DNA of 64,000 bases from a virus (IMGVR_UViG_3300025085_002722:66386-130385); one strand, 5' to 3'; positions 31,793-49,616 are shown, counted from the first letter of the stretch. Notes: generated by a model from the letters alone, not told the origin. Numbers and translations are program-made.

Positions 31793-31798
31793 GGACTT

Positions 31799-33140: not shown

Positions 33141-33147
33141 TTTTTTC

Positions 33148-33176
33148 TTGACCTTTGTTGCTCATTGTGTTATATT
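33148..33176 (+). promoter_or_regulatory. sigma70-type promoter overlapping a minus-strand late promoter
   Basis: TTGACC-17-TATATT with TG extension; ATAAATA on the minus strand at 33173-79. Confidence 0.6.
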
Positions 33177-33183
33177 TATAACT

Positions 33184-33672
33184 ATGACAATGCATTTACA
33201 ACAAGGTCTGAGTACCATAAACACTCGTAAGACACGCAAGATGCCTAAGTTGACTAAGGCGAAACTTGCTGAACTAGAACTTAGATGGCGTAAACATAAC
33301 AAAGAAATGAAACGTACTCACATGCATCATATGAGATATGAGACTTTGCAGGAGTATATTGATTACTGTTACGGTAGAGTAAAAATGCCTGACCCACGTG
33401 ATTATAGACACTTCAAAGTAAACAAGCCTACTCCAAGTTGGCGAGTCGAACAAGACAAAGAGCACAGAGAAAAGTATCCAAGTCTTATGGAACAACAAAT
33501 GAAACAAGGCACGTTTAATACTGGCATGGATGGTAAAGGTACTAAGAAGGAGCCTATGAAGTACACAGGCGACCTTATACAGGGTATTGCTACTATGCAC
33601 AAAAGTAATGCGGTGCCTGTAATGAAAGGCACAGATCAAGCAAAAGACATAGCAAGAATGAGGAGAGGCTAA
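33184..33672 (+). CDS. conserved hypothetical myovirus protein
   Basis: C-terminal YTG..I.GIATMHKSNAVPV...AKDIARMRR; ATG 33184. Confidence 0.7.
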   Translation: MTMHLQQGLSTINTRKTRKMPKLTKAKLAELELRWRKHNKEMKRTHMHHMRYETLQEYIDYCYGRVKMPDPRDYRHFKVNKPTPSWRVEQDKEHREKYPSLMEQQMKQGTFNTGMDGKGTKKEPMKYTGDLIQGIATMHKSNAVPVMKGTDQAKDIARMRRG

Positions 33673-33827
33673 TGTTTGAGAAGATAGTTGAATTTATTGT
33701 TATAGCCATGGTTTTAGGAATTTTAGGTGCTGGTATTTATGTAGCATTTGATAGTCGTTATGAAATGATAGAAAAACAAAAATACTTCGATGATGCAAAT
33801 AATTTAGATACAGATAAAATTGCATGA
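33672..33827 (+). CDS. small membrane protein (51 aa)
   Basis: Hand translation MFEKIVEFIVIAMVLGILGAGIYVAF...; AGGAG SD; overlaps both neighbours. Confidence 0.6.
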   Translation: MFEKIVEFIVIAMVLGILGAGIYVAFDSRYEMIEKQKYFDDANNLDTDKIA

Positions 33828-34018
33828 ATCAAAATTATCAAGAACTATTGAGACAACACTATGCCGCACAAGGTATAGTAATACCTGCAGAATTTGAATT
33901 GCCTGTATGTGATCACCCAATAGAAAAATGGTGTAGTAACTGCGACTACGATTGTGAAACTTATGAGAAGATAACGCATACTAGAAAATATCCTCAAATT
34001 TATTTTTTCGATGATTGA
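33824..34018 (+). CDS. hypothetical Cys-rich small protein
   Basis: CDH...WCSNCDYDC. Confidence 0.5.
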   Translation: MNQNYQELLRQHYAAQGIVIPAEFELPVCDHPIEKWCSNCDYDCETYEKITHTRKYPQIYFFDD

Positions 34019-34268
34019 ATTAGCAAAATTACAAAACAGTGAATTAATCTACGGCACATACGAAGAATGCGAGGCCTATGCAGAACAGCAAGACTCTTGT
34101 GTTGATAGATATTTTGACCACGTTAATCCCTCCACAGTATACAAAAACTTTAAATATGTAGGCAATAACATCAGTAACCCTTATAGTGTAAGTGTACCTT
34201 TTGATTACAGAAAGCAAAGGACTAAAGGCACATTTAACAATGCAGGGGTGAATCAAGATAAATGGTAA
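34011..34268 (+). CDS. hypothetical protein
   Basis: 85-aa ORF in operon. Confidence 0.55.
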   Translation: MIELAKLQNSELIYGTYEECEAYAEQQDSCVDRYFDHVNPSTVYKNFKYVGNNISNPYSVSVPFDYRKQRTKGTFNNAGVNQDKW

Positions 34269-34274
34269 ACAAAC

Positions 34275-34415
34275 ATGTCAGCAGATAAGCACTTCACAGG
34301 CAAAGGCTCTAAACAAAGACCAATTAAAGATCAAAAACAGTTTGACGATAATTGGGACAGAATATTTGGTAAAAAGAAATCAAAAGATGATAAAAATAAA
34401 TCCAACCCCAGTTGA
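34275..34415 (+). CDS. small phage protein (46 aa; missed by the ORF track)
   Basis: Hand translation MSADKHFTGKGSKQRPIKDQKQFDDNWDRIFGKKK...; GKGS..RP...NWDRIF motif. Confidence 0.7.
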   Translation: MSADKHFTGKGSKQRPIKDQKQFDDNWDRIFGKKKSKDDKNKSNPS

Positions 34416-35010
34416 TAGCGGCATTCCTATTTGGGAGGGTTCTTTAACATGGAAACTCAAACCAGAAGAGATTATCAATCAAACCGAATGGGCCAAAATC
34501 GAAGATGGTAAACACTTATTAACTGAGCCATCAGGTAATACTATTAGAAATTTAGAAAATCTATTAGGCTATTTTGGTTCTCATAGAATTATTAATAATC
34601 TACCAATAGAAGAAATTGGCGACCATCTATATGAACAATGGGCAACTGACAACATAAGAGATCCCGAATATTTAAAAACAATATTAAGTTATCATTCTAG
34701 TATTGTTAAGCACGATGTAGGATATAAAAAAGTCCCATTTAATGATAATAGGATTATATTTGGTAAAATTATTGTAAATTTAAATGATTATCTATTAACA
34801 CCGCCAGTATTATTTACAAGTAATATGGATTGGCCAGTTACCGATGTAATAGTAGAAAAGGACTGGGATTATCTAGATGCACTTTTCTTTCTAAATAGTA
34901 ACAATTTTTATTATGGCTCACAAAATAACACCAAGCGAGAATGCTACTTTTTAGAGTGCGATTTAGCACTTGAGCCACTTTTTCTGGTTGACAGAGACTC
35001 CTTAATTTAG
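34387..35010 (+). CDS. hypothetical protein
   Basis: Long ORF; likely ATG 34387. Confidence 0.55.
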   Translation: MIKINPTPVDSGIPIWEGSLTWKLKPEEIINQTEWAKIEDGKHLLTEPSGNTIRNLENLLGYFGSHRIINNLPIEEIGDHLYEQWATDNIRDPEYLKTILSYHSSIVKHDVGYKKVPFNDNRIIFGKIIVNLNDYLLTPPVLFTSNMDWPVTDVIVEKDWDYLDALFFLNSNNFYYGSQNNTKRECYFLECDLALEPLFLVDRDSLI

Positions 35011-35016
35011 TATAAT
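34988..35016 (+). promoter_or_regulatory. sigma70-type promoter
   Basis: TTGACA-17-TATAAT. Confidence 0.85.
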
Positions 35017-35041
35017 ATACTTAAATTGTTAGGAGTTAAAT

Positions 35042-35347
35042 ATGATCGAAATACTACAGGAAATAACTGATTGGGGCAAGTATCCAGTTGCCAATGGTGT
35101 GTATCATGTTAATAGTGCAGGTCAACTTGTTCAGCACAATGATACAGTATTTAAAAATCCAATTAAACAGTTTTCTAAAGCAAGGCGTAAGTTTACTAAG
35201 ATAGGCGAACGACCAGAAGAACTTGCCGCCGATGTTATCCAAGTACAAGGTAGCAATGGCAAAGTATACACTATTGAAGATGGCAAATGCAGTTGCCCTG
35301 GTTATACGTTTAGGGGGAACTGTAAGCATGTTAAACAAGTTGCTTAA
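35042..35347 (+). CDS. SWIM zinc-finger protein
   Basis: V.GS.G..Y ... CSCPGYTFRGNCKH; AGGAG SD. Confidence 0.85.
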   Translation: MIEILQEITDWGKYPVANGVYHVNSAGQLVQHNDTVFKNPIKQFSKARRKFTKIGERPEELAADVIQVQGSNGKVYTIEDGKCSCPGYTFRGNCKHVKQVA

Positions 35348-37130
35348 AACTATAGTCGATATAAGTGTTGTTGCTTTATTAGTATTTGGCTTAACAGCAT
35401 GTGGAGGCGGTGGTGGTTCATCGGCTGTCGCTACAACTACATCTGCACCAACATATCCTGCTAATGGTACAAAATCAGGTAGTGAATATTGTGGCACCGA
35501 TGACAATGAATGGACATTATATCAAGACTATCATAACGGTAGCGGTGGTACTTACACATCAGTAGTTGAAGAAAATTCTGCTACTTGTGGCTGGAAAGAA
35601 TTACCAGCATGGCAAGGCGAAGACTATAGCGAGTATGACAGCAACTCTGATCAATATGCAGTAATACAATACAACAGAAAAGAATTTGACGAGTATGACT
35701 TGTCTGCAATGGAACTTAATTTAGAAGGTAATGAATACTTTGCATACAAAAATACAGGCATGATGTATTCTGAAAACACAGGTTGGCGTAATGCAAGTAC
35801 ATGGCATGAACACGAACAATCAGAAGCCGGCTACTCATATAGTTACGAAAAAGGCCCAGCACCTATTGTAATGGACATTAACGGCGATGGCTTACAAGAC
35901 ATGATGTATGCACATAGGTTTGGTCCCAACCACAACGACTGGTTACCACGTACAAAACTTATACCACTTGTGAATCAAGGCAATGGAAGACTACATGTTG
36001 ATCCAGATGTATTTGTAGGTTACGAGATTCCATTTAGTAGTAACATGTATGTAAGTCATGTTGCTGATTTTAATGGAGATGGCAAAGACGACTTTCTAAA
36101 TATAGGTGAAGGTCCTGTGCTATTGCTGTCTGAGTATGGTGGACTTGCTAACCACACAGATAGATTGATATCACAAATGACCGATATAGGTTCATTAAAT
36201 AGCGAAAAATATGCAAATGGCATAGTAGAATTTAATGTATGGACTCACACTACTGCAATTGGCGACTTAGACGGTAATGGTACTATAGATGTATTTGTGC
36301 CGTCTCCATTAGTAGATCAAAATCATAATTGCCCAGATGCACTTTATTGTATTGCATTCACTATGTTAAATGACGGTGATGGCAATTTTACATTAGGTTC
36401 AGTGAACATGCCTTTTGTAGCAAGTGCAGGTGGCAGTTGGATAGACGACTTTAATAACGATGGTTATGGCGATATTGCAATACTATCTAGTTCAGAACAT
36501 AACCCATGTACTGACTGCAATGGATATGTAATGTATGGTAATGCAGACGGAGACTATACCAGAGATATTAGACCGCTACCTAAGAATTCAGAAAGCCAAA
36601 ATGGTTCATTGCAAATTATAGGTACTGACTTAAATGACGATGGCTTAACAGATTTAATTACAGGCCACACAGGTTCAGAAGGATACTATGTTGGGCATCA
36701 GTATCAAGTTTTTATTAACGGTGGCGATGGCAATTGGACTAATGAAACTCAAACATACATAGAAACAAAAGAAGTAGAAGGGCACCCAACCCACGGAGTT
36801 CAATTAGCATACGCCAAGTATGTTGATATGAATGGAGATGGCCATGAAGATATTGTATCAACAGGTTCGTGGTCATCACCTATTTATATTTGGGAGAATG
36901 GTAAATTTGTAATGCAGGGCAGACTAATAGACTACCTACCATATGCAGGTACAACAGCCAACTGTGACCCTACACAAGACCATACATGTGGTAGTGTAAT
37001 ACAAGGACACAACCCTATTAACATTAACGGAGATAACATATTAGATTTTGTACAAGTTATAGAATACGGCTCAGATCAAATGTCTGGAATAGTATTAACG
37101 CAAATAAATGGTAAAAAATTGCCTTTTTAG
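35328..37130 (+). CDS. FG-GAP/VCBS repeat lipoprotein
   Basis: Lipobox LTAC then GGGGGSS; about 7 DxNxDG repeats (DINGDGLQD, DFNGDGKDD, DLDGNGTID, DFNNDGYGD, DLNDDGLTD, DMNGDGHED). Confidence 0.85.
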   Translation: MLNKLLKTIVDISVVALLVFGLTACGGGGGSSAVATTTSAPTYPANGTKSGSEYCGTDDNEWTLYQDYHNGSGGTYTSVVEENSATCGWKELPAWQGEDYSEYDSNSDQYAVIQYNRKEFDEYDLSAMELNLEGNEYFAYKNTGMMYSENTGWRNASTWHEHEQSEAGYSYSYEKGPAPIVMDINGDGLQDMMYAHRFGPNHNDWLPRTKLIPLVNQGNGRLHVDPDVFVGYEIPFSSNMYVSHVADFNGDGKDDFLNIGEGPVLLLSEYGGLANHTDRLISQMTDIGSLNSEKYANGIVEFNVWTHTTAIGDLDGNGTIDVFVPSPLVDQNHNCPDALYCIAFTMLNDGDGNFTLGSVNMPFVASAGGSWIDDFNNDGYGDIAILSSSEHNPCTDCNGYVMYGNADGDYTRDIRPLPKNSESQNGSLQIIGTDLNDDGLTDLITGHTGSEGYYVGHQYQVFINGGDGNWTNETQTYIETKEVEGHPTHGVQLAYAKYVDMNGDGHEDIVSTGSWSSPIYIWENGKFVMQGRLIDYLPYAGTTANCDPTQDHTCGSVIQGHNPININGDNILDFVQVIEYGSDQMSGIVLTQINGKKLPF

Positions 37131-37131
37131 G

Positions 37132-37159
37132 TTGATTTTTATCCAAAAAGCACTATAAT
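37132..37159 (+). promoter_or_regulatory. sigma70-type promoter upstream of the hsp20 leader
   Basis: TTGATT-16-TATAAT. Confidence 0.55.
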
Positions 37160-37169
37160 ATATATTATA

Positions 37170-37430
37170 GATGGTAAATAAAAATGCGAAGAGATCTTCA
37201 AAAGAGCACGGGCCTTTAAATGTAGGTCTTCAAAAGTGCTCGGGTTGAACGCAAATGTAGAAGGAAAGCGGAAAGCAATCCTTTTTAGGCTACCCAACAA
37301 AGGACTGGAGATGGCAACATCAAAGGAAACCAAGAAGTGTAGCAAGTGTGGTGAGGAGATACGGACACACACAAACAGAAACGACCTCACAACGCGACTT
37401 TTTCATTCGCCATAATGGGTATGAAAATTT
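37170..37430 (+). ncRNA. candidate structured RNA / long 5' leader
   Basis: GC-enriched intergenic region with several stems, including GATG-GCAA-CATC (GNRA loop); family not recognised. Confidence 0.35.
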
Positions 37431-37446
37431 TAGGAAAATAAAATAA

Positions 37447-37473
37447 CTTGCTAAATTATAGGAGATTATTATG
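37447..37473 (+). promoter_or_regulatory. ROSE-like RNA thermometer hairpin
   Basis: CUUGCU (37447-52) opposite AGGAG SD (37460-64), directly before a small HSP gene. Confidence 0.65.
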
Positions 37474-37911
37474 GTAAACAAGCAAATCAGATTCTCTACA
37501 GAATCACTTTCCCCACTATTTAAAGCCAGCATTGGCTTCGACAACTTAGTAAACGAGTTCTTCAATGAGCCTCAGTTTACAAATTCTACAGGGTATCCCC
37601 CTTACAACATATCTAAAAACAAAGACGATGTCTATGAAATTACTCTTGCAGTTGCAGGATTTAAAAAGTCAGATATCGAAATTGAACTTGAAGACGGTAC
37701 ACTAAAAATTACTGGAACTTCTAATGTTTTAGATGCTGATGAAGTTGAATACTTACACAAAGGTATTGCAGAACGCAACTTTGTGAGAACATTCAAACTT
37801 GCAGAATATGTCGAAGTTAGTTCAGCAAAACTCGAAGATGGTATTCTAAGAGTTGGCTTAGAGAGAAATGTTCCTGAGGCAATGAAGCCTAAGAAAATAG
37901 ATATTTCTTAA
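37471..37911 (+). CDS. small heat shock protein Hsp20 (IbpA-like)
   Basis: IGFD, YPPYNI, LAVAGF, YLHKGIAERNFVRTFKLAEYVEV, A.LEDGIL, KI.I. Confidence 0.95.
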   Translation: MVNKQIRFSTESLSPLFKASIGFDNLVNEFFNEPQFTNSTGYPPYNISKNKDDVYEITLAVAGFKKSDIEIELEDGTLKITGTSNVLDADEVEYLHKGIAERNFVRTFKLAEYVEVSSAKLEDGILRVGLERNVPEAMKPKKIDIS

Positions 37912-37920
37912 TTTTAACTA

Positions 37921-37955
37921 GTGGCGGGATATTGCCAATGTGTGGTACCCGCCAC
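37921..37955 (+). terminator. GC-rich hairpin after hsp20 (no U-tract; terminator or stabiliser)
   Basis: GTGGCGGG / CCCGCCAC. Confidence 0.55.
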
Positions 37956-37979
37956 ACCATAAACAAGTAAATAAGTGTA

Positions 37980-38276
37980 ATGAGTAAAGCAGATATTAGA
38001 ACTAGAAAAACAGTAAACCTCAAATATCCTGACAGGTTTAAAATTGTTATTTTAAATGATGATTATACACCATTTGATTTTGTTATACAATTACTTGTAG
38101 AGTTGTTTAATAAAAACATAGACGAAGCAAAAAAAATTACTTCGCAAGTGCATGAACAAGGGCAAGGTGTCATAGGTTACTACAATGCCGAGATAGCCGA
38201 GCAAAAAACCAATGAAGCAACTGTGGCTTCACGAACAGCAGGGTATCCTCTAGTCGTGAAGGTGCAGAAAGCATGA
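37980..38276 (+). CDS. clpS: N-degron adaptor ClpS
   Basis: [26 protein letters not shown]. Confidence 0.93.
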
Positions 38277-39721
38277 AGCAATTTGACGAAGTAAATAAAA
38301 CTTATAAAGAAGGCTTTTCAACTGACATCGAGTCATTCTCATTGCCGCCAGGTTTAGATGAAGACGTAGTTCGTACTATAAGTAGTATGAAAAATGAACC
38401 CGAGTGGTTACTTGACTTTAGACTAAAAGCATTTGCACATTGGAAAAATAGTGTCGAGCCTACATGGGCAGAACTAGATTTCAAACCGATTGACTACCAG
38501 AGTATTTCTTATTACTCGGCACCAGAAAAATTTAACAAAGACGACATACCACAAGAGATTTTAGATACGTTTGAAAAGTTAGGCGTACCTTTACATGAAC
38601 GTAATGCATTACTAGGACTAGAAGAACCAGATCCAAATATCATTCCCACAGTGGCCATTGACGCAGTATTTGATAGTGTCAGTGTTGCTACAACATTTAA
38701 AGCAGAATTAGAAAAACACGGCATTATATTTTGCAGTATCAGTGAAGCAATAGAACAACACGAGGACTTAGTTAAAAAATATTTAGGTACAGTAATACCT
38801 ATTAAAGATAATTATTTTGCTACACTTAACTCAGCAGTATTCACAGACGGCACATTTTGTTACATACCACCAGGTGTAACATGCCCAATGGAACTAAACA
38901 CTTACTTTAGAATAAATGCTCGTAACACAGGGCAGTTTGAACGCACACTTATCATAGCAGACAAGGACAGCAAGGTTAGTTACTTAGAAGGCTGTACTGC
39001 ACCTGCTTACTCACAAAACACGTTACACGCGGCCTGTGTAGAACTAGTGGCCCATGAAAACGCAAATATCAAATACAGTACAGTACAAAATTGGTATCCA
39101 GGAGATGAGAACGGTGTAGGTGGTGTATATAATTTTGTAACCAAAAGAGGACTATGTAAAGGTGATAACAGTAAAATATCTTGGACCCAAGTTGAAACAG
39201 GTTCCGCAATTACTTGGAAGTATCCTTCCTGTATATTACGAGGTGACAATAGTGTTGGCGAGTTCTATAGTGTTGCGGTAACAAAAGGCAAACAACAAGC
39301 AGACACAGGAACCAAAATGTTCCATGTCGGAAAGAACACAAAGAGCACTATCATAAGCAAGGGCATAAGTTTTGATGATAGTGTAAACACTTACAGAGGC
39401 AAAGTAAGAGTAAACAAAGGTGCCACAGGTAGTAGAAACTACACTAGGTGTGACAGTTTAATGTTAGACAACAGTCTAGCAATTACACTACCAACAGTAG
39501 AACAACACAATAACGATAGTGTTGTTGAACACGAAGCAAGTACAAACAAAGTATCTGAAGACCAATTGTACTACTTAAACACGTTAGGCATTGATGAAGA
39601 AAATGCAACTAATCTAATTGTAAACGGGTTCTGCAAAGAAGTTTTTAAAGAACTTCCTTTGGAATTTGCCGCTGAGGCAAGACAACTTTTAAACGTAACA
39701 CTAGAAGGAGCAGTTGGATGA
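38273..39721 (+). CDS. sufB: Fe-S cluster assembly protein SufB
   Basis: [74 protein letters not shown]. Confidence 0.97.
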
Positions 39722-40845
39722 AGCCACTAATTATATGCGGTGGATGTAGTTTTACACATGCCCCAGATAGTTGGGCACAGGTCCTTGGCGGATATAAAAA
39801 AATCTGGAATGATCAGGCTCAATATCAGTATAGTCTATGGAAAGAGTACGGTAAAGTAGTTGCCAATGCAAACATGGATCATTTGCCGGAAAGCATATAT
39901 GATGTATGGGACGAGGGAGAGGATATATCTAAATATGCAGATGTAATGGTAGTAGGCCAAGGTGCAAGTGGTAATCAACTTAACAGCAGAGTTATTAGAC
40001 ACGCAGTTGAACAAAACGAAGGTAGACAAATTATTGTATTATGGCAATTAAGTAGTTGGTCTAGAAATGAATATGCCATTAATAGATTTGACTCTATTGA
40101 CTACAACACAATAATAAATGAACACGATGCACATCATATGTATAGCATACCTTATGCTAGAAGATTTAGAAATTGTGCTCATATAGACGGAGGCGAACAT
40201 GACCCGAATGTTCCTGCAGGTTGGGGGTATGATTTTGAAGAAACTGTAAATGAGAATTATGCTGGGATTACTCCGCCTCAATACAGAGCCGAACACAGAG
40301 TATGGATGAAGCAAGGCGGCGGATATACAGGCTGGGAAAACAGGCGACTATTTGAAGTATTTAAAGAAGATTATATAAATCTTAATACCGCGGATAATCA
40401 GTCAGTAAAAAATTTAGAAAACGTAGAATATATGAAACTTTTTTGCGAATCTAAAAACGTGCAATTATTAATGTTCCCTGGTTGGTATTGGTGCTGGGAT
40501 GGTATGTTTAATTTTGTTTCATCTGAGAGCACACTATATTCCAAAGATGTATTAGATAGAGTAGGATTAAGTGCAGTTGATAATATAAACAATACCGGAG
40601 GTATAGCAGAATATGGTATACAAGACGAACTATATTGTACACCTGATGCAACTAACCAGAACCCAGAAATAATGTTACTAAGCGGTGACGTATATACTGC
40701 TAACGAAACATCAAGTATTTACGAAAAGGCAAAACTAGACGACGGCACATGGTGGTGTGGTAATCATCCGAGTGGATATAATCATGCAAAATTTTGCAAC
40801 AAATGGCTAAAGCCTAAAGTACTAGAAATGCTTGACAACGCATAA
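39718..40845 (+). CDS. SGNH-like hydrolase/acyltransferase (paralog family B) inserted in the suf cluster
   Basis: GGCSFT, GASGN, C-terminal NHP. Confidence 0.5.
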
Positions 40846-40861
40846 TAAATTAGTGTATAAT
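40832..40861 (+). promoter_or_regulatory. sigma70-type promoter, 6 nt before the sufC ATG
   Basis: TTGACA-18-TATAAT, then ATG 40868. Confidence 0.7.
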
Positions 40862-40867
40862 AACAAT

Positions 40868-41566
40868 ATGAAATTCCAAGACGTAAGTATAACAATCGAC
40901 AATAAAGAGTTACTAAAAAACTTTAATAAAACAATTTTACCCGGTGAAACCGTTGTTGTTATTGGACCTAATGGTTGCGGTAAAAGTACATTAGCACATG
41001 GCATCATGGGCCGAGGCGACATCGATGTAGAAGGTTCAATAAAATTTAATAACAAAGAAATTACTGATATGGAAACATTTGAGAGATCAAAAGAAGGAAT
41101 ATTTGTCAGTTGGCAAACTCCTCCAGAACTACCAGGCGTTTCTACATTCGGACTAATTAAAGAAATCAAAGAAATTAAGTCTGCACAAATAGGTACAGAA
41201 TTAAAAGAATTTAAAAACACATTGACTAAAGTAGGATTACCTGAATCATGGACTACTAGACCAGTTAATGTCGGCGGCAGTGGCGGAGAAAGAAAAAGAG
41301 CAGAGTTATCTAATTTACTTACATTACAACCACAATGTGCTATATTAGATGAAATAGATACAGGTTTAGATTCAAATGGATTAAAACTTGTTGTTGAAGT
41401 TATTAATGACCGCAAAGAGAAAAACTTATCAACTATTATGATAACACACAATATCAATACTGTACAAAACTTAGAATACGATTATGGTTTAATGTTTGAA
41501 GACGGTAAATTAGTTGAAGTTGACAGCAATGTAGTTGAAAAGAAATTAAAGGAAGGTTATGACTAA
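40868..41566 (+). CDS. sufC: Fe-S assembly ABC-type ATPase SufC
   Basis: GPNGCGKSTL, Q.P.ELPGV, RPVNVG.SGGERKR.E, ILDEIDTGLD, ITH. Confidence 0.92.
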   Translation: MKFQDVSITIDNKELLKNFNKTILPGETVVVIGPNGCGKSTLAHGIMGRGDIDVEGSIKFNNKEITDMETFERSKEGIFVSWQTPPELPGVSTFGLIKEIKEIKSAQIGTELKEFKNTLTKVGLPESWTTRPVNVGGSGGERKRAELSNLLTLQPQCAILDEIDTGLDSNGLKLVVEVINDRKEKNLSTIMITHNINTVQNLEYDYGLMFEDGKLVEVDSNVVEKKLKEGYD

Positions 41567-42734
41567 GTCATGCGAGGATTTACTAGATTTATTAATCGAA
41601 GTTGGCGGTGAACAGTGGTCTATAAATGCAACTAAAGAATTCTTAAGCAAGTCCTTACATGATTCTTACACACCAGTAAATTACAAACTTGAAGAATATT
41701 CTTCTGCTGTATTCAAACGTCTTTGGACAAAAGAATTAGACTTTCCGTTTAATGGTCAAGGTAATGCCAGTGTATACAGTAACGGCTTTAATGACGAAGT
41801 GCCACAAAATGTTAGATTCAAGGCAGGACAATTTTCGGGTAATCACGAACTAAACCAACTCGGTGGCCATATATGGCATGATACCGGTGATGCACACGGA
41901 AACGTTTATGACTACTATACAAGGTCAATAGATGTTTTTAAAAACAGCACTATACCAGGATTACTAGCAACTGCATTAACAGGTGGAACAAGTGTATGCA
42001 TGTTAAGTACATGGGAAAACAAACATGCATTAAATTTTGTTAATGAAGATGTAGACAATGAAAATAATTCATTAAATGCAGGTGTATACATAGTGCATAT
42101 TAGAGACAAGTCTAATCTTACAGTTAAAGAATCTATCCTTAACGGAAAAGATATGTACTTAAACAAATGGATTTATATTATTGGGTATGACAGTAAATTA
42201 GAACTTACTAGAGAGGTAATTAACAGCAATGGCGTAGTTGATGATGTCAGTATAATTCAGTATCCTGGCAGTGAACTAATTGTGAATACATATGACAAAG
42301 ACCCACAATGGCGGCACTTAGATATTACTGCATACCAAAACACAACAACAACTGTCAATGGTAGTGTGTTATGCAAAAACTCTAGTTCATCTCATAATGT
42401 AATTGTTAACCATAAAGGTAATAATAGCACTAGCACAATAAAATATCACTCTGCAATTTACAACAACAATGTAACAGATTTTATTGGCAGTATAAATGTT
42501 GATAAAAAAGCAGTAGGTACAAACTCCAGTATGATAAACAAAAATCTATTAATGGACAAGACTAGCAAAGCAAAGTCAATACCGAAACTAAATATCAATA
42601 CCAAAGAGATACAATGTACACACGGTTGTACAATAAGCAATGTAGATGAAAACGAGATATATTATCTTGAAACATTAGGAGTTAGCAAAACAAATGCAAG
42701 AAAAATGATTGCAGACGGGCACATACAAATATGA
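41559..42734 (+). CDS. sufD: SufD-like Fe-S assembly protein (divergent)
   Basis: F.G.I.V...A.GT, NLL....A.SIP.L.I....CTHGCTI...DE..IYYL...G. Confidence 0.85.
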   Translation: MTKSCEDLLDLLIEVGGEQWSINATKEFLSKSLHDSYTPVNYKLEEYSSAVFKRLWTKELDFPFNGQGNASVYSNGFNDEVPQNVRFKAGQFSGNHELNQLGGHIWHDTGDAHGNVYDYYTRSIDVFKNSTIPGLLATALTGGTSVCMLSTWENKHALNFVNEDVDNENNSLNAGVYIVHIRDKSNLTVKESILNGKDMYLNKWIYIIGYDSKLELTREVINSNGVVDDVSIIQYPGSELIVNTYDKDPQWRHLDITAYQNTTTTVNGSVLCKNSSSSHNVIVNHKGNNSTSTIKYHSAIYNNNVTDFIGSINVDKKAVGTNSSMINKNLLMDKTSKAKSIPKLNINTKEIQCTHGCTISNVDENEIYYLETLGVSKTNARKMIADGHIQI

Positions 42735-43909
42735 TTAACAGTAACACAAGAGATCAATTTAAGGCACTAAAGTCTGGCAAGGTGTATTTTGATACAGCGG
42801 CAACCAGCCTTACTCCTGATGAAGTTGTAGATAAGATGGCTGAGTACTACAACGAGTACCCTAGCAATGTACACAGAGGTAACTATGCTTGGGGAGATGT
42901 TGCTACAACAGAATACGAAGGCGTAAGAGACAAAGTAAAAGACTGGTGTAATGCACACAATTATGAAGTAGTATTTACATCAGGTGCTACATTTTCTTCT
43001 AACTTAATTTATTACAATTTAAAAAATTTAGGTATATCTAAATCCATAGTAAGTCTTAACGACCATCATGCTAATATTGTACCTTACAGATTACACAACT
43101 CTAACGTTGAACAAATACCTGTACCAGATAACGGAGTATTTAATGAACAAGAACTGTTTAAATACGGGTCACTAGACGCACACATTTTGCATATAAGCGG
43201 GGTTTTCAATGCAACTGGGCAAATACTGGATATAGAAAAAATTACGCACACAGCAAAAGAATTAGGTGGCTTAGTAGCATTAGACATGAGTCAACATATG
43301 AGTCATGAAAGTTTAGACGCAGATAAAGTCAATGCAGATTTTTACTACTGGAGTTCACATAAACACTATGGGCCAACAGGAACAGGTATATTATTAATTA
43401 AAAAGTCTATTGCAGAACACATGGAACCACTAATAGGTGGCGGTGCCCAAGTAAGCAATGTAACTGATAGTAAAACAGAGTTTTGGGAAATACCGTTAAA
43501 GTTAGAAGCAGGCACACCTAACATAGCAGGAGTTATAGGCACCGGTGCAAGTATAGACTTTATGCAAAAGATTGGCATGGATGTAATACACAGTCACACA
43601 CAAAACCTATTAGGAATCATTATCAAAGAATTAAGAGAAAGAAAGATACCTATTATATGCGACGAACTACCACTAGAGAAAAGAGGTGGCTTGGTAAGTT
43701 TTACCATACCAGGTCAACATTCATATGATGTTAGTGTAGCATTAGGATTAAAAGATATATATGTTAGGTCAGGCAAACTATGTGCCCACCCTGTGGTAAA
43801 CAAATTATCGGACAATGGATTTATTAGAGTAAGTGTCGGTGTAAACAACAACGAAGTTGATGTTGCAAGATTCTTAGAATCGCTAGACCAAGTATTAACA
43901 TATGGATGA
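42731..43909 (+). CDS. sufS: cysteine desulfurase SufS
   Basis: YFDTAAT, SNVHRG, HHANIVP, SSHKHYGPTG (PLP Lys), EAGTPN, RSGKLCAHP (catalytic Cys). Confidence 0.92.
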   Translation: MINSNTRDQFKALKSGKVYFDTAATSLTPDEVVDKMAEYYNEYPSNVHRGNYAWGDVATTEYEGVRDKVKDWCNAHNYEVVFTSGATFSSNLIYYNLKNLGISKSIVSLNDHHANIVPYRLHNSNVEQIPVPDNGVFNEQELFKYGSLDAHILHISGVFNATGQILDIEKITHTAKELGGLVALDMSQHMSHESLDADKVNADFYYWSSHKHYGPTGTGILLIKKSIAEHMEPLIGGGAQVSNVTDSKTEFWEIPLKLEAGTPNIAGVIGTGASIDFMQKIGMDVIHSHTQNLLGIIIKELRERKIPIICDELPLEKRGGLVSFTIPGQHSYDVSVALGLKDIYVRSGKLCAHPVVNKLSDNGFIRVSVGVNNNEVDVARFLESLDQVLTYG

Positions 43910-44219
43910 TTTAAGAAAATTTATTGCTGGCAAAGTAAAAGCAGAACTAACAAAAATATTTGATCCTGAAGTACCAGTAAACATTGTTGACTTAGGTCTT
44001 ATATACAATGTAGAAATCAATCAAGAAATGGACTGCCAAGTACTAATGACACTAACAGCACCAAATTGCCCAGCCGCAGAAATATTACCAGCAGAAGTAC
44101 ATGCCGCGGCGGCAACTGTCGAAGGCGTACAAAAAGTAAATGTTGATATTACTTTTAACCCACCTTGGAATCCAGATCTTATATCAGAAGAAGCACGTTT
44201 TACACTAGGCATAGAATAA
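43902..44219 (+). CDS. sufT: DUF59/SufT (FeS_assembly_P) protein
   Basis: DPEVPVNIVDLGLIY, MTLTAPNCPAA, FNPPW. Confidence 0.9.
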   Translation: MDDLRKFIAGKVKAELTKIFDPEVPVNIVDLGLIYNVEINQEMDCQVLMTLTAPNCPAAEILPAEVHAAAATVEGVQKVNVDITFNPPWNPDLISEEARFTLGIE

Positions 44220-44257
44220 ATAAATGCTTACGCCACAACAGGTGTAAAAGGAAATAT

Positions 44258-44680
44258 ATGAATATAATAAATCACATCACTACTAACCTGAAAACAGTAT
44301 TAGTAGACAGATGGAAAGACTGGAGCGGAAGAAGTAATAGACCAGAGTATTGGTTCTTTACATTGTACGCAAGTCTTATTGCCTTAGTGGCAATGGGAAT
44401 AGATAACCTTATAGGATTCACATTCTTTAATTGGCTTGATCCATTCTCAGAAAGCAAGAACTCAGGAATATTTGTAGCGATCTGGATATTGGCAACATTA
44501 CCAGCATCACTAAGTGTTACTGTAAGACGACTACATGACAGAGGTCATAGTGGTTGGTGGGTAATTGCTTTCTTTGTACCTGTGCTAAACTTCTTACCAT
44601 TATATTGGTTAGTGAGAGCGGCAAAGGATACACCAGAAGCAAAGAAATACAAAAACCCTTATGGAAAACTACCTAAGTAA
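44258..44680 (+). CDS. DUF805 membrane protein
   Basis: GRSNRPEYWFF, VRRLHDRGHSGWW, NPYG. Confidence 0.9.
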   Translation: MNIINHITTNLKTVLVDRWKDWSGRSNRPEYWFFTLYASLIALVAMGIDNLIGFTFFNWLDPFSESKNSGIFVAIWILATLPASLSVTVRRLHDRGHSGWWVIAFFVPVLNFLPLYWLVRAAKDTPEAKKYKNPYGKLPK

Positions 44681-44692
44681 AGGAGAAAAATA

Positions 44693-45250
44693 ATGTCATC
44701 AATTAAGAGAAAAGTACCAGTAATGGATTTTCCTGTCAGAGTAGAAACTGACGAGAACCCAGGATGGAAATGGGATACACTTACTTATGACCAAATTTTT
44801 GCAGGTAAAAAAGTTATAGTATTTGGATTACCAGGTGCTTATACTCCTACTTGCACAACTAATCAATTACCAGGCTATGAGGCTTTCTACGAGCAATTCA
44901 AAGCAGAAGGCATTGATGAAATCTTTTGTTGTTCAGTAAATGATACATTCGTAATGAACTCTTGGTTCAGAGAAGTTAATGTAGAAAAAGTAAAACCAAT
45001 ACCAGACGGTACAGGTAAATTTACTAGACAAATGGGATTCTTAGTTGATAAGAGTGTCATAGGTTTTGGACTTAGAAGTTGGAGATATGCAATGATTGTT
45101 AATGATGGTAACATTGAAGCAATTTTTGAAGAGCCAGGATACAGCGATGAATGTCCTGATGATCCATATCAAGTCAGTGATCCAAACACAGTTTTACAGT
45201 TTATCAAATCAGGTACACTACCTAGCATAGACGACCAAAACGAAGAATAA
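44693..45250 (+). CDS. peroxiredoxin (Prx5/Redoxin type)
   Basis: GLPGAYTPTC, SVND.FVM, DG.G.FT, G.RSWRYAM. Confidence 0.93.
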   Translation: MSSIKRKVPVMDFPVRVETDENPGWKWDTLTYDQIFAGKKVIVFGLPGAYTPTCTTNQLPGYEAFYEQFKAEGIDEIFCCSVNDTFVMNSWFREVNVEKVKPIPDGTGKFTRQMGFLVDKSVIGFGLRSWRYAMIVNDGNIEAIFEEPGYSDECPDDPYQVSDPNTVLQFIKSGTLPSIDDQNEE

Positions 45251-45252
45251 GA

Positions 45253-45286
45253 TTAGGGCGGCCTTAACGCCCTAACCTTTTTATTT
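45253..45286 (+). terminator. rho-independent terminator
   Basis: TTAGGGCG/CGCCCTAA stem followed by TTTTTATTT. Confidence 0.85.
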
Positions 45287-45305
45287 CCACATAATAAATA
45301 CTAGC

Positions 45306-46001
45306 ATGTCCACAAAACACATCACAGATGTGCTGTTCGTAGTACAGGCTAGAGTAAACAGCACAAGAGTACCAAGAAAAATGATTAGACCATTTGCTAG
45401 TACCAGTTTGATCGATGTGTGTTTACGAAAAATTAAAAAGTCCAAGATACCACAAGAACAATTTATTCTCAGTGCTAACGAAATTCATTTAAAACGATTA
45501 GCAGAACATCACGGACTAAATGTGTTCGATAGAAGTGTTAAGAGTGCTAACGAAGAAAAAGATTTACAGTCATTATACGAATGGTACGATAAGTTTCCAC
45601 AATATAAATATGTAGTTCTAATAAATGCATGTAACTTATTTTTAACTGTAGAAACAATAAACAATTTTATTGATACATATCTTAACTCTCCAAACGATGG
45701 ACTGTTTGCTGTTACCAATAAGAAAAATTACTTTTGGAATAGCAACGGAGATCTTACAACACCATGGCCAGAAGGATATGAACTAATGAATACTAAAGCA
45801 GTAACACCTACATACGAAGGTGCTCATTGCTTGTATGCTAGTAGACTAGACTTAATAGGCGAAGGCAGTTTTATGGGCAAGGCACCATTCAAGAAAGACA
45901 ATCCAGAAATATTTGTTATAGATGAGTTTGAAAGTCTTGACATAGATTATGAATGGCAATTTGATTTATACACATCGTATTGGAAAAAGTTAAATGGTTA
46001 A
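45306..46001 (+). CDS. neuA: CMP-nonulosonate synthetase (NeuA-like cytidylyltransferase)
   Basis: VQARVNSTRVPRKMIR, ESLDIDYEWQF. Confidence 0.85.
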   Translation: MSTKHITDVLFVVQARVNSTRVPRKMIRPFASTSLIDVCLRKIKKSKIPQEQFILSANEIHLKRLAEHHGLNVFDRSVKSANEEKDLQSLYEWYDKFPQYKYVVLINACNLFLTVETINNFIDTYLNSPNDGLFAVTNKKNYFWNSNGDLTTPWPEGYELMNTKAVTPTYEGAHCLYASRLDLIGEGSFMGKAPFKKDNPEIFVIDEFESLDIDYEWQFDLYTSYWKKLNG

Positions 46002-46809
46002 AGTAATAGCAGAAATAGGAATCAATCACAACGGAGACTTAGATCTTTGTAAAAAAATGATAGCCGCGGCAAAAGAAGCCGGTGCTTATGCAGTAAAGTT
46101 TCAAAAACGTGACCCAGACACTTGTGTACCGGAACACCAAAAAAGTATGATGCGTCAGACCCCATGGGGCGAAATGACGTATTTAGAATACAAACATAAA
46201 ATAGAATTTGGCAAAGACGAATATGATGAGATACGCAGGTACTGTAAAGAAATAGACATAGACTGGTTTCTTAGTGTGTGGGATATCAAAAGTTTACACT
46301 TTGCATTACTGTATGGTAACAGACTTGTCAAAATACCAAGTGCATTAGCAACAGACGAAGAACTGGTTAGACGTGCTGGTAGTAACTTTGATAATGTTAT
46401 AGTTAGTACAGGCATGTGCAACTTCCAAGAGGTTGTACAAATGACAAAAAGGTTTGAACGTACAAGAAACTTAATACTGTTTTATACAGTAAGTGCCTAT
46501 CCGGCTCCACTAGATCAACTGAACTTAGATACATTAGACTTGTACAAAGAGTTTGGTCACCCAATAGGTTATAGCAGTCATGACGTAGGTGTATATCCTG
46601 CGGCCGCCACAGTATTAAAAGGTGTAAAGTATATTGAAAAACATTTTACCACTGATAAAACTTTATGGGGAACAGACCAATCAGCAAGTATGGAGCCAAG
46701 CGAATTAAAAGAATTAGTAGAGCAAGTAAGAATGCTAGAGCAAACTGTAGGCAAACGTTTTGATGTATTACCTTGTGAAGAGCCAAATAGAAAAAAATTA
46801 AGACCATGA
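45994..46809 (+). CDS. neuB: nonulosonate synthase (NeuB family, no C-terminal SAF domain)
   Basis: IAEIGINHNGD, VKFQKR, KIPS, STGM, SAYP, GYSSH, IEKHFT, DQSAS. Confidence 0.93.
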   Translation: MVKVIAEIGINHNGDLDLCKKMIAAAKEAGAYAVKFQKRDPDTCVPEHQKSMMRQTPWGEMTYLEYKHKIEFGKDEYDEIRRYCKEIDIDWFLSVWDIKSLHFALLYGNRLVKIPSALATDEELVRRAGSNFDNVIVSTGMCNFQEVVQMTKRFERTRNLILFYTVSAYPAPLDQLNLDTLDLYKEFGHPIGYSSHDVGVYPAAATVLKGVKYIEKHFTTDKTLWGTDQSASMEPSELKELVEQVRMLEQTVGKRFDVLPCEEPNRKKLRP

Positions 46810-47627
46810 AAGTAGCATATTGTTTATCAGGATTAATCGATAATATTACGCCAACAATACATGGCTTAAATGAAATACAATTATCACAGGAGATGGATTT
46901 CTTTTGCCATACTTGGGACGATCCTAAAAATCCAGGCATAGATATTGTAAATCAATTTCCCTTTAAAAGAACAAGGACATCAACATATAAAGAATTCGAA
47001 GATCATATACTATCACAGCCAAATGCAGAAGAATTACATATTAGATCAAACTCTCAAAAAAATATAAAACACTTTTTTAGAACTCATATGGCGCAATTCT
47101 ATAGCACTATAAAATGTATCGAAAGAGCATTAGAATACGGAGATTATGATATAATCATAAAAGCAAGATCTAATCTTAGATACGAAAAAAGTTTATGTAA
47201 TAATTTAAAAAGTAATTTAGAACAAAATATTCAGCCAATCGTAAATAGAGAACCTGGAGCATGGACTCATTTCCAAAGACCAGATAGCGACGACCGGACT
47301 GGTACAAAATGGGAACACTGGCCTTCCTGCATAGATGGTGTACAAACGGTTTTTGCACCTTCTTTTACTTTTCCTATATGGAAAAACAATGCACCATTTA
47401 TAGATACAATGTTTGCAATGGAAAAAGCATTTGCAAAAAAACATATACTAGAGCCAGACTTTTTAGAAAATATCATTAATACATTTATGTATTTTGCCGA
47501 TAATATAGATTCTCTTTCAATGGAGGCTGATAAAGTATGGTTTAGATATTTAATGGATAACAACATAGCAATTTTTGGTTTTCCAGTTGAGATGTGGATG
47601 ACAAGGAATCAAAAGATAATAATATGA
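46806..47627 (+). CDS. hypothetical, putative glycan-transfer protein
   Basis: MKVAYCLSG, FCHTWD, YDIIIKARS.L pattern; located inside the neu cluster. Confidence 0.45.
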   Translation: MKVAYCLSGLIDNITPTIHGLNEIQLSQEMDFFCHTWDDPKNPGIDIVNQFPFKRTRTSTYKEFEDHILSQPNAEELHIRSNSQKNIKHFFRTHMAQFYSTIKCIERALEYGDYDIIIKARSNLRYEKSLCNNLKSNLEQNIQPIVNREPGAWTHFQRPDSDDRTGTKWEHWPSCIDGVQTVFAPSFTFPIWKNNAPFIDTMFAMEKAFAKKHILEPDFLENIINTFMYFADNIDSLSMEADKVWFRYLMDNNIAIFGFPVEMWMTRNQKIII

Positions 47628-48535
47628 TAGCAATATGGGGCCTAGGTTCAGCAGGTGGTAGATATAAAAATATTGCCAACGACTTAGGTTATACAACAAA
47701 GATTTTAAAAAGGCAAGACAACGGAGACAGTTTTGATTTTGATGAGTTAGATTTATCAGAAATAGAAGCCGCTATTATATGTACGCCAACTGTATTCCAC
47801 AAAGAACAATCAATAAAGTTTTTAGAAAATAATATTCCTGTGTTATGCGAAAAGCCAATCGCACATACATACCAAGATGGTAGAGAAATAATAGACGTTG
47901 CTGTTAAACACGGAACCAATTTTATGGTAGGTTACAATCAAAGATATTTTGCGGCCTACAAAAAGTTTCAAGAGGCCCAGTGGGGCAAACCCATCTATGC
48001 AGAAAGCAAATGGAGTGAACTAGTATCCGGGTGGCATCCACACGAAGACTACAGAGAATCCTATGCTGTTAGACCTGACCTAGGTGGAGGTGTACCTTTG
48101 ACTTTGAGCCACGACTTTGACTGGTGGACAGGTCTATTTGGTGACTTAACTGTTTTAAGTGTACACCACTCCGCTGGTGCTCTTGATGTTGATATTCCTA
48201 CATCATATGACATTTTACTAGACAATCATGATTCGTCATTGCAAGTAAATATGCATTTGGATTATGAAGGTTCGCCTACTGAAAGATACTATAAAGTAGA
48301 GTACGAGAAAGGCACGTTATACTATAACCCAATAGAGTCAGTTTGCGAGTTTACATACAAGGATAGCACAATTGAAGAAGTAATGATACCTTCCTTCAGC
48401 AATGAAAGAAGCAGTTCTTTTGTAAATACATTTATTAAATTTATGAATGAAGACGATCGCATAGGAAACAAAACCGATTGGGAGTTAGGATTAACTGCAT
48501 TAGAAATAGCAGACACAGTTGAGAATTGGAAATGA
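47624..48535 (+). CDS. Gfo/Idh/MocA oxidoreductase
   Basis: GLGSAG, ICTPT..H, VLCEKP, VGYN.R, GGG....SHDFD. Confidence 0.9.
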   Translation: MIAIWGLGSAGGRYKNIANDLGYTTKILKRQDNGDSFDFDELDLSEIEAAIICTPTVFHKEQSIKFLENNIPVLCEKPIAHTYQDGREIIDVAVKHGTNFMVGYNQRYFAAYKKFQEAQWGKPIYAESKWSELVSGWHPHEDYRESYAVRPDLGGGVPLTLSHDFDWWTGLFGDLTVLSVHHSAGALDVDIPTSYDILLDNHDSSLQVNMHLDYEGSPTERYYKVEYEKGTLYYNPIESVCEFTYKDSTIEEVMIPSFSNERSSSFVNTFIKFMNEDDRIGNKTDWELGLTALEIADTVENWK

Positions 48536-49218
48536 GTAATAGAGTATTAATTTTAGGTAATGGAATAATAGGAACACAGGCAAAAATTGCGGCTACTCAA
48601 TTAGGCTATTCTGTAGCAACAGCAGATTTGAAAGGTGCAACATTTACTGTAGACTTACGAGACGAAGAACAATACAACGAAGTATTACACGACTGGAAGC
48701 CTAATGTAATTTTTAATACAGCAGGCAAAGATCAAAAGTTAGGCGAAGATGCAAAACCTTTACATGAAATGCACAACACTGACTGGGATAGTTTATTTGG
48801 ACATAACACAGATCTACTGTTTAATGTAGCAAGAACATCATTAGCATACTTAATGGAAAGCAAAAAGCAAAATAAAAAATTAATATTCACACCCAGCACT
48901 TACAGTTTTACAGCACCCAATCCAAATTTTTATGATGATGATTTTGTAAAAAGTTTTGCGTATGTTGGTTCTCAAAGTGTGTATGTAAACTTAGTACAAT
49001 ACATTGCAAGGCATTATGCTAAACACGGCATATCATGTAATGGCCTTGTACCACATTTAGTAATGCACGAACTTAAAAATGTTGATAGCACTTACTCACC
49101 AGTAGGAAGAACATGTTTGCCAGAAGAACTATTACCTGTATTAAAAATGCTTATGGACGAAAATAACACTTATATGAATGGAGAGTTTATTAAAGTTAAC
49201 GGAGGATGGTTGTGCTAG
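48532..49218 (+). CDS. SDR-family oxidoreductase (divergent)
   Basis: LG.GIIG, NTAG, S.Y, Y..S, YMNGEFIKVNGGW. Confidence 0.7.
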   Translation: MSNRVLILGNGIIGTQAKIAATQLGYSVATADLKGATFTVDLRDEEQYNEVLHDWKPNVIFNTAGKDQKLGEDAKPLHEMHNTDWDSLFGHNTDLLFNVARTSLAYLMESKKQNKKLIFTPSTYSFTAPNPNFYDDDFVKSFAYVGSQSVYVNLVQYIARHYAKHGISCNGLVPHLVMHELKNVDSTYSPVGRTCLPEELLPVLKMLMDENNTYMNGEFIKVNGGWLC

Positions 49219-49616
49219 ATGTAATTAAAAATTTAGTTAAGGACACTAGTACAGAGGGCGGTGTAAAAAATATTATATTATGGTCTAACAGTCATGACCT
49301 TGCACAGGAATATTATGAGTCTTATATTAAAATGCAGTTAGGTCTCAAACTAGTAGGACCATTAAACGTCACATTACATTCTATACCAGTATGGAGCCAG
49401 TTTACTAACTTTTCAGATGAGATGCCATGGTGCCTTTCAATGACACCAGCAGAATTGTTTTTAGGAGATTACGAGTACGGAGTAAGTGATCAAGTAAAAA
49501 GAACACACGAAGAATTAATTAAATACTGGATGTACACTCAACAAATTTTAACAATACAAATTGATTATACACCAGGTTTAGATCACCCGAATATTATTAA
49601 ACATGAGCAGTGGTAA
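49206..49616 (+). CDS. hypothetical protein
   Basis: 136-aa ORF in operon; GGAGG SD. Confidence 0.55.
   Translation: MVVLDVIKNLVKDTSTEGGVKNIILWSNSHDLAQEYYESYIKMQLGLKLVGPLNVTLHSIPVWSQFTNFSDEMPWCLSMTPAELFLGDYEYGVSDQVKRTHEELIKYWMYTQQILTIQIDYTPGLDHPNIIKHEQW

Follow-up and report, generated by a model that had tools for sequence, protein, structure and literature searches.

The biogenesis of iron-sulfur (Fe-S) clusters is regarded as a core cellular function, and to our knowledge phages have so far been known to carry only single Fe-S carriers or subunits. Described viral examples include an A-type carrier, IscU and PaaD/DUF59 in marine phages (PMC5332604), sufE and nifU (PMC8940887), a cysteine desulfurase occurring alone in viruses (PMC12911398), and the SufB of amoC-phages, which groups with host homologues (preprint 10.64898/2026.06.18.733297). 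Here we analyze a stretch of 64,000 nucleotides (hereafter the window), which comprises bases 66386-130385 of the linear IMG/VR virus record IMGVR_UViG_3300025085_002722 (130,385 bp; CheckV completeness 25%). It carries sufB, sufC, sufD, sufS, and sufT on the plus strand at 38273-44219, as an original prediction made from the DNA alone had stated, and open reading frames (ORFs), Pfam matches, and structure alignments agree on these genes and on the retention of their key residues. We consider it likely, with a probability of roughly 0.7, that they constitute a genuine phage-encoded SUF pathway of an uncultured marine jumbo myovirus.

A set of scaffold and desulfurase genes had been expected to be much rarer among phages than single carrier genes. 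We found no bona fide GenBank phage with a sufBCDS set, and no publication describing such a phage set in a search outside which lay subscription journals and supplementary tables, the latter of which might list more genes. The sole GenBank phage record with sufBCDS, Microcystis phage MaAM05 (MW495066; L007), looks like host DNA and was set aside; its sufB-sufC-sufD-sufS-iscU genes (267786-273195) lie at the very end of the linear record, after pxpA, panB, and panC. Matches to SufB and SufS in staphylococcal, listerial, and enterococcal "phages", which come mostly from short or unannotated records, were likewise rejected.

Suf proteins and their key residues

The phage SufB aligns with E. coli SufB (5awf_A) at an E-value of 1.2e-183. 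In the E. coli system, SufB residues C254, C405, and E434 are named as essential, together with SufD H360 (PMC5571166); the three SufB positions correspond to C241, C393 (in the motif YTRCD), and E421 of the phage protein. The N-terminal CxxCxxxC motif, which the same source calls dispensable, is not present in phage SufB. This is the sole Suf protein of the window to score above an NCBIfam equivalog cut-off, reaching 803.7 bits with the proteobacterial SufB model NF008773 (cut-off 717) and 602.4 bits with TIGR01980 (cut-off 346.4).

The best solved match of the phage SufC is E. coli SufC (2zu0_C; 4.3e-39), and the protein keeps the Walker A motif (GPNGCGKST), the signature (SGGE), the Walker B motif with its glutamate (ILDEID), and the H motif (ITH). 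A profile built from 20 SufD relatives reaches 1.2e-24 against E. coli SufD; the phage H355 (QCTHGCT) aligns with the E. coli histidine (KCSHGAT), and the arrangement C353-x-H355-G-C357 is invariant in the 20 relatives. SufS finds its best solved matches in SufS of B. subtilis (1.2e-68) and E. coli (6.8e-54). Both its pyridoxal phosphate-binding lysine K211 (SSHK) and its active-site C351 (RSGKLCAHP) align with the solved proteins, and H112, H113, D185, Q188, K211, R346, C351, and R366 are invariant across 24 sequences. A SUF-like minimal system (SmsBC) was considered and rejected: the model NF052511 gives only 166.6 bits, against a cut-off of 650, and SufD and SufS are present.

Two types of phage SUF cluster

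A search of IMG/VR with the single SufD sequence returned no close relatives; a profile search was used instead and recovered 11 IMG/VR loci and 80 marine metagenome loci. The order hsp20-clpS-sufB-sufC-sufD-sufS-sufT, with prx nearby, recurs in 9 of the 11 IMG/VR loci, and all five suf genes are seen in 60 of the 80 metagenome loci. The latter split into two phage cluster types, which are new here: type A, to which the window belongs (38 loci, 25 of them showing all five genes), and type B (42 loci, 35 showing all five), which also includes the IMG/VR loci L008-L016. The surrounding genes recur as well. Among the metagenome loci, hsp20 precedes clpS-sufB in 17 cases of type A and 28 of type B, and the distance from the end of clpS to the sufB match is 0-45 nt wherever both genes are seen (46/46). 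The prx gene appears in 28 loci of type A and 26 of type B and the DUF805 gene in 11 and 4, respectively; the latter has a 140-aa homologue in L008 that is 93% identical in an ORF-based comparison. Type A, as found in the window, is a distinct cluster type: an SGNH-like gene is fixed in the place between sufB and sufC, a promoter that probably acts early lies inside the cluster, and the divergent SGNH-like, sufC, and sufD genes form a cassette that recombines.

Within type A, identity to the window's proteins is 88-99% for SufB, 50-87% for SufC, 38-82% for SufD, and 58-99% for SufS; the corresponding values for type B are 67-82%, 31-39%, 27-34%, and 29-32%. Identity changes in a step between the types, because cross-type SufC and SufS lie far below the bacterial ratios and within-type values lie near them. 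Thus, in an all-against-all comparison, phage pairs at 75-80% SufB identity have median identities of 37% for SufC and 31% for SufS, whereas bacterial pairs at equal SufB distance have 66% and 53%. This step suggests that a sufCDS cassette may have been replaced xenologously between types A and B. In the SufS tree, however, each type forms a clade (support of 100 in the SH-like approximate likelihood ratio test, SH-aLRT) on a long stem (1.37 and 1.21), and a tree in which A and B are held together is not rejected (log-likelihood 11.1 higher; p = 0.764 in the approximately unbiased test). The simplest reading for the two types is a single old acquisition followed by fast divergence. Our first SufC and SufS trees, for which every third bacterial locus was used, gave the window very long branches (9.0 and 3.6) and were uninformative.

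The original prediction held SufB to be host-like and SufC, SufD, and SufS to be divergent. The divergence of the latter three stands. SufB, to judge from its sequence, is better described as canonical than as host-like, because the 80 best bacterial loci retained from a scan of 185,579 species, with a single genome per species, are 62-66% identical to it (best tblastn segment), versus 67-99% for its phage relatives. In the SufB tree, phage sequences form a clade of their own, with SH-aLRT support of 100 (nine rows including the window) and 98 (ten rows) against 40 bacterial rows, which represent every second of those 80 loci; L016 and L018, being nearly the same as L011 and L017, were omitted. 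The tree gives no host, the phage clade being sister to no sampled bacterial group. In a collection of 5.8 billion proteins, SufS identity passes from the phage family (at least 57%) straight to values of at most 41% (named matches include the Candidate Phyla Radiation, Marinimicrobia, and others), and SufC identity from at least 51% to at most 38%. Given the phage-only SufB clade and these drops in identity, no recent donor is visible for any gene, and the long residence in phages that had been proposed for the cluster is borne out.

Synonymous divergence (dS) from the type-A locus L116 follows a mosaic pattern, with 0.04 for hsp20, 0.44 for clpS, 0.34 for sufB, 1.31 for the 375-aa SGNH-like gene, 1.66 for sufC, 1.14 for sufD, 0.06 for sufS, 0 for sufT, and 0.24 for prx. 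The SGNH-like gene, sufC, and sufD are an old allele that has been moved by recombination among otherwise close phages.

Gene order and expression signals

The suf genes had been described as translationally coupled. This holds at most joints, where neighbouring genes overlap by 4-8 nt (clpS/sufB, sufB/SGNH-like gene, sufC/sufD with 8 nt, sufD/sufS, and sufS/sufT). Coupling is broken between the SGNH-like gene and sufC, because a gap of 22 nt and a promoter lie there. The gap is counted from ATG 40868, which is most likely the start of sufC in preference to TTG 40832, as the SufC match begins at residue 13 of the longest ORF.

The promoter, which the original prediction had assigned to sufC, is the only site in 37000-45500 to match the sigma-70 consensus at all 12 positions. 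Since 6 nt separate its -10 box from the sufC ATG, the sufC mRNA would be leaderless or nearly so. The whole window contains eight perfect TTGACA-N16-18-TATAAT sites, all on the plus strand, versus an expectation of 0.10, and none of 100 shuffles reaches eight; evidently, the phage uses the host sigma-70 consensus for one class of genes. In the contigs of a metatranscriptome sample, summed depth is 130-240 over 36691-37904, which covers hsp20 and the non-coding DNA upstream of it, and below 30 elsewhere in 28800-47000; contig depth cannot rank genes, and neither this peak nor the two bins without cover were counted as evidence.

Proposed pathway

We propose that host RNA polymerase with sigma-70 would transcribe sufC-sufD-sufS-sufT-DUF805-prx early in infection from the consensus promoter, with clpS-sufB and the SGNH-like gene as an upstream unit. 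SufS would take the sulfur of cysteine as a persulfide on C351 and hand it to SufB C241 via a transpersulfurase encoded outside the fragment, either a phage SufE specified elsewhere in the genome, as in the relatives, or that of the host. Driven by the SufC ATPase, the sulfur would move on to a site composed of SufB C393 and E421 and SufD H355 in a scaffold of the SufBC2D type, and SufT may help to deliver the clusters to phage clients (three radical SAM proteins and an FdxA-like ferredoxin) and perhaps to host clients. The peroxiredoxin, Hsp20, ClpS, and ferritin-like genes would fit a module that, as host synthesis falls off, sustains Fe-S supply in surface seawater that is oxic and poor in iron. 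That the set functions as an Fe-S assembly machine is suggested by its intact residues, by purifying selection, and by the linked clients.

Several results weigh against this reading. Apart from SufB, the Suf proteins fall below the cut-offs of their best NCBIfam models: SufC scores 196.1 bits with TIGR01978 (cut-off 212.8), SufD 117.5 bits with TIGR01981 (cut-off 222), SufS 336.1 bits with TIGR01979, a general subfamily model of the SufS family (cut-off 475.1), and SufT 124.4 bits with TIGR02945 SUF_assoc (cut-off 143.4). SufD aligns with solved SufD over its C-terminal third only, and the SufS loop RSGKLCA departs from the RAGHHCA of solved B. subtilis SufS. In the 130-kb record, about 25% complete, there is no match at E <= 1 to SufE (PF02657) or SufU/NifU_N (PF01592), and none to an A-type carrier/SufA (PF01521). 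The related records that do bear sufE are of type B or show the order sufB-sufE-sufC, and none is of type A. Contigs of the one metatranscriptome sample cover 28 of the 30 bins of 28800-47000, which is weak evidence for presence in RNA, given that DNA carry-over is possible. Finally, a search with the tail sheath protein of the window's phage found no counterpart in five related records; as all five are fragments, this absence carries no information.

The prediction that sufE, sufU, and sufA are missing is thus true of the whole record. For sufE, this absence holds for the fragment only, because the record is about 25% complete and sufE is present in four of five related records of 44-138 kb, namely the four of 92-138 kb, the 44-kb fragment being without it. 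It is found in none of five related records of 25-38 kb. The type-B records G001 and G002 both carry sufE, which in G002 lies about 22 kb downstream of the cluster. SufU/NifU_N occurs in none of five related records, and an A-type carrier in one of the five (G003, 39800-40105). SufA is not part of every bacterial SUF system.

A fragment without sufE would also suit phage parts that plug into host machinery, with SufB joining host SufC, SufD, SufE, or SufS, or with SufS feeding the host scaffold, so that the host's SUF system is boosted or redirected. Within type A, SufB is much better conserved than SufC and SufD, it alone exceeds its equivalog cut-off, and marine phages with single Fe-S genes that need host partners are known (PMC5332604, PMC8940887). 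We nevertheless regard such a dependence as rather unlikely. The phage sufC, sufD, and sufS genes are intact, with ratios of nonsynonymous to synonymous divergence (dN/dS) of 0.03-0.16 relative to six type-A relatives; sufC and sufD overlap and diverge together as a cassette, which fits a co-adapted phage pair; and the relatives carry a sufE of their own.

The SGNH-like gene between sufB and sufC

An unrelated SGNH-like gene had been said to split sufB from sufC. A 375-aa gene does lie there, and it is no chance interloper: it occupies this position in all 28 type-A loci showing both genes and in none of 37 type-B loci, and its dN/dS is 0.15-0.23. Its 31 full-length homologues are all from type-A loci and share invariant motifs that include GxAGNxLNSR, GNHPS, and an N-terminal C-G-G-C-S. 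The protein has no family in Pfam or NCBIfam. DUF6071, a lead from a protein atlas (39% of one viral hypothetical cluster), was not confirmed by Pfam and was dropped; the atlas otherwise returned viral hypothetical clusters only.

An AlphaFold2 (AF2) model of the protein (pLDDT 70.9, pTM 0.74) gave nothing at E <= 0.001 in a Foldseek search of the PDB. In a VIA-align comparison with 48,161 chains, most of the top 30 matches were GDSL/SGNH esterases, at Z-scores of 7.1-5.5, where the tool's safe level is 8. The invariant S11 (GGCS), N89 (GNxLN), and H350 (NHPS) presumably sit at the expected SGNH blocks. SGNH-like appears a fair label.

A bolder idea is that the type-A protein, with its invariant N-terminal C-G-G-C-S motif, might be a new integral SUF component, acting as a SufE-like sulfur relay or supplying or unmasking sulfur or iron, and that it co-evolves with SufC and SufD, the three genes forming a cassette that can be exchanged; type A would then be a virus-invented variant of the pathway that lacks a known transpersulfurase. 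We consider this distinctly improbable. The predicted complex of SufS with the 375-aa protein scored 0.00, which lends no support and counts neither way.

The sufB-sufC junction is an insertion hotspot, with different inserts in different lineages. In one type-B sublineage (L181, 1989-3436), a 372-aa gene with a weak, sub-threshold PhyH match and a 114-aa cupin lie between sufB and sufC. A third form of the cluster, seen at 1924-10390 of L017 and in L018 (records G003 and G004), has sufB directly followed by sufE and then sufC; its SufD-like ORF has only 188 aa and lies about 5 kb further on. Record G004 is flagged as a provirus.

Selection on the cluster

All genes of the cluster are under purifying selection, with dN/dS values of 0.02-0.23 for all nine genes relative to the same six relatives. 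These values also bear on the possibility that the desulfurase chiefly supplies sulfur elsewhere, for thiolated tRNA or thio-cofactors, and that the scaffold genes are a hitch-hiking operon remnant. Type II desulfurases serve several pathways (PMC8300815), and SufS, whose top NCBIfam match is the general subfamily model at a score below its cut-off, also matches CsdA models with 237 and 230 bits. Such a role is nonetheless very improbable: sufB, sufC, sufD, and sufT are kept with sufS in the 25 type-A and 35 type-B loci mentioned above, purifying selection extends to all five suf genes, and the scaffold retains its ligands C393, E421, and H355. Several genes have reached a dS above 1, and over such divergence a remnant would be expected to have decayed.

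Phage identity and soundness of the assembly

The viral origin of the record, which the original prediction left to be confirmed, is supported by its gene content and by independent DNA contigs that run continuously over the junctions. The 130-kb record encodes a tail sheath (phrog_10581, 3.9e-240) and a large terminase subunit (TerL; phrog_36964, 7.4e-128), as well as a virion protein, DnaB, another helicase, and ribonucleotide reductase. The nearest cultured TerL proteins all belong to jumbo myoviruses, namely Pseudomonas phage PA5oct (58.5%), Sinorhizobium phage Phosso (50.7%), and the Rak2/121Q group (43.9%). Of the 153 ORFs in the window's record, 49 have a match in the 110-kb record G002, with the order largely kept, and 29 in the 119-kb record G001. 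The type-B IMG/VR records are jumbo-phage fragments with CheckV completeness of 3-32%. Across records G000-G010, completeness values of 3-39% for fragments of 25-138 kb would correspond to genomes of roughly 240-850 kb; these are rough estimates.

GC content is even along the window (0.33-0.42). At least some part of the stretch occurs in 20 runs from 14 studies, and 14 DNA runs contain at least half of its sampled words. Contigs from two DNA runs not flagged as source cover all 30 bins of 28800-47000 and bridge the passages from an FG-GAP gene to sufB, from sufB through the 375-aa gene to sufC, from sufC to sufD, and from sufD to sufT with 0-1 differences; the junctions among sufB, the SGNH-like gene, and sufC are bridged with 0 differences. 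A bacterial segment joined to the phage DNA was looked for and not found. A bacterial suf operon introduced by chimeric assembly or cellular contamination is hardly credible, even if the host-like end of the MaAM05 record shows that such artefacts exist and the Gram-positive "phage" matches to SufB and SufS come mostly from short or unannotated records: phage genes flank the block on both sides, bacterial SufB identity does not exceed 66% in the 80 best loci, and an assembly chimera is excluded because the block recurs in the same phage backbone across independently assembled records from many samples and DNA contigs of other studies bridge its junctions.

Neighbouring genes

Of the potential clients that had been proposed within the window, the ferredoxin, which is FdxA-like, and both radical SAM genes are indeed present (Table 1); a third radical SAM gene of the record lies upstream of the window. 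The first of the two is a conserved type-A neighbour, matched in 18 of the loci L126-L148 at 46-72% identity, and it follows prx by about 1-1.7 kb in those where prx is also seen. The second has a weak likeness to B12-binding radical SAM methyltransferases, with sub-threshold NCBIfam matches only. In the window, a cassette encoding a CMP-sugar cytidylyltransferase, NeuB, a Gfo/Idh/MocA oxidoreductase, and a short-chain dehydrogenase/reductase (45306-49218) lies between prx and the first radical SAM gene. The cytidylyltransferase-NeuB cassette is a later insertion, as only the closer type-A loci L111-L125 have it and L126-L148 do not. The 375-aa gene is not tied to this sialic-acid-like cassette, since it is found in both type-A subgroups.

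The ferritin-like gene has counterparts of 75-76% identity in G001 and G002; in the window it lies with cytochrome c and DUF2061 genes at 31343-32463, 6 kb upstream of the suf cluster. In addition to clpS, the record carries clpX. In plants, Clp protease is described as regulating SUFB (10.1101/2024.11.01.621566), and a regulatory link between clpS and sufB is conceivable in the phage.

Table 1. Positions of the SUF cluster, associated genes, and sequence signals, counted from the first nucleotide of the window
Feature	Position	Strand	Evidence or remark
Eight perfect sigma-70 sites	784-812, 18932-18961, 22110-22138, 23233-23261, 28471-28498, 30075-30103, 34988-35016, 40832-40861	+	
FdxA-like 7Fe ferredoxin, candidate client	4466-4795	+	CxxCxxCxxxCP motif; FdxA_Protbact 118.5 bits (cut-off 135)
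phrog_8578 protein, strong phage family	15738-17576		2.3e-133; one flank of the suf block
Ferritin-like protein, possible iron store or donor	31799-32239	+	Pfam Ferritin 1.3e-16
hsp20, encodes a small heat-shock protein and opens the conserved block	37471-37911	+	Pfam HSP20 6.4e-19
clpS, Clp protease adaptor	37980-38276	+	Pfam ClpS 1.3e-25; 4-nt overlap with sufB start
sufB, Fe-S scaffold subunit, 482 aa	38273-39721	+	Pfam SUFBD_core 7.5e-74 and SufBD_N
SGNH-like gene, 375 aa	39718-40845	+	No Pfam or NCBIfam family
Sigma-70-type promoter TTGACA-N18-TATAAT	40832-40861	+	Perfect 12/12; ends 6 nt before sufC ATG
sufC, scaffold ATPase of ABC type, 232 aa if started at ATG 40868	40868-41566	+	Pfam ABC_tran 1.3e-18
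sufD, divergent scaffold partner, 391 aa	41559-42734	+	Pfam SUFBD_core 4.4e-32, confined to the C-terminal half
sufS, type II (SufS/CsdA-class) cysteine desulfurase, 392 aa	42731-43909	+	Pfam Aminotran_5 7.6e-95
sufT, DUF59 Fe-S maturation factor, 105 aa	43902-44219	+	Pfam FeS_assembly_P/DUF59 5.2e-16
DUF805 membrane protein, start taken at ATG 44258	44258-44680	+	Pfam DUF805 1.2e-22
prx, peroxiredoxin (Redoxin family), last gene of the unit	44693-45250	+	Pfam Redoxin 1.7e-24
Two-way hairpin with T tracts on either strand, resembles a terminator and closes the unit	45253-45275	.	Terminator-like sites 45253-45279
Radical SAM protein, candidate client	49603-50805	+	Pfam Radical_SAM 3.4e-11
Second radical SAM protein, candidate client	55363-56886	-	Pfam Radical_SAM 1.4e-13
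Tail fibre	61092-62399		Other flank of the suf block

Comparison with known systems

If the window encodes a genuine phage SUF pathway, viruses can own most of a cofactor-assembly pathway, with scaffold, ATPase, desulfurase, and maturation factor. The pathway would probably serve to supply the radical SAM and ferredoxin proteins of the phage itself in water that is oxic and poor in iron, and the iron and sulfur use of infected cells would come partly under viral control. The module would belong to a widespread family of marine jumbo phages, in which the virus brings most of the pathway and not a single helper gene. Because SufB is extremely conserved, SufC, SufD, and SufS are very divergent, and the cassette recombines, the two cluster types would also serve as natural experiments on which SUF contacts tolerate change and on whether SufS works without SufE or SufU.

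The E. coli SUF system (sufABCDSE) shares with the phage cluster the order sufB-sufC-sufD-sufS, the essential residues of SufB and SufD, for which the phage proteins have equivalents, and the ATPase motifs of SufC. It differs in that the phage fragment (130 kb) is without sufA and sufE and its SufB without the N-terminal CxxCxxxC; moreover, the phage operon is split by the SGNH-like gene and the promoter, is linked to clpS, hsp20, sufT, and prx, and is borne by a virus. Relative to the bacterial proteins encoded at the loci with the closest SufB, identity is 28-38% for the phage SufC, 23-36% for SufD, and 27-37% for SufS.

In the Bacillus SUF system (sufCDSUB), SufS works with the zinc protein SufU. 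The phage SufS matches that of B. subtilis better than that of E. coli, and neither system has sufE adjoining sufS. In contrast, no SufU/NifU_N is found in the record or in five related records, the gene order is different, the phage SufB is of the proteobacterial kind, and the active-site loop of SufS reads RSGKLCA in the phage and RAGHHCA in B. subtilis.

The type-B phage clusters have in common with the window the phage backbone, the order hsp20-clpS-sufB...sufC-sufD-sufS-sufT...prx, and the SufB clade, but they are without the SGNH-like gene, and their SufC, SufD, and SufS are far from those of the window. Marine phages with single Fe-S genes resemble the window's phage in that viral Fe-S genes are described as co-occurring with viral radical SAM clients and Clp genes (PMC5332604, PMC8940887, 10.64898/2026.06.18.733297). 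Whereas the genes of those phages are lone carriers or subunits that need the host pathway, the window brings scaffold, ATPase, desulfurase, and maturation factor together, on phage-only branches.

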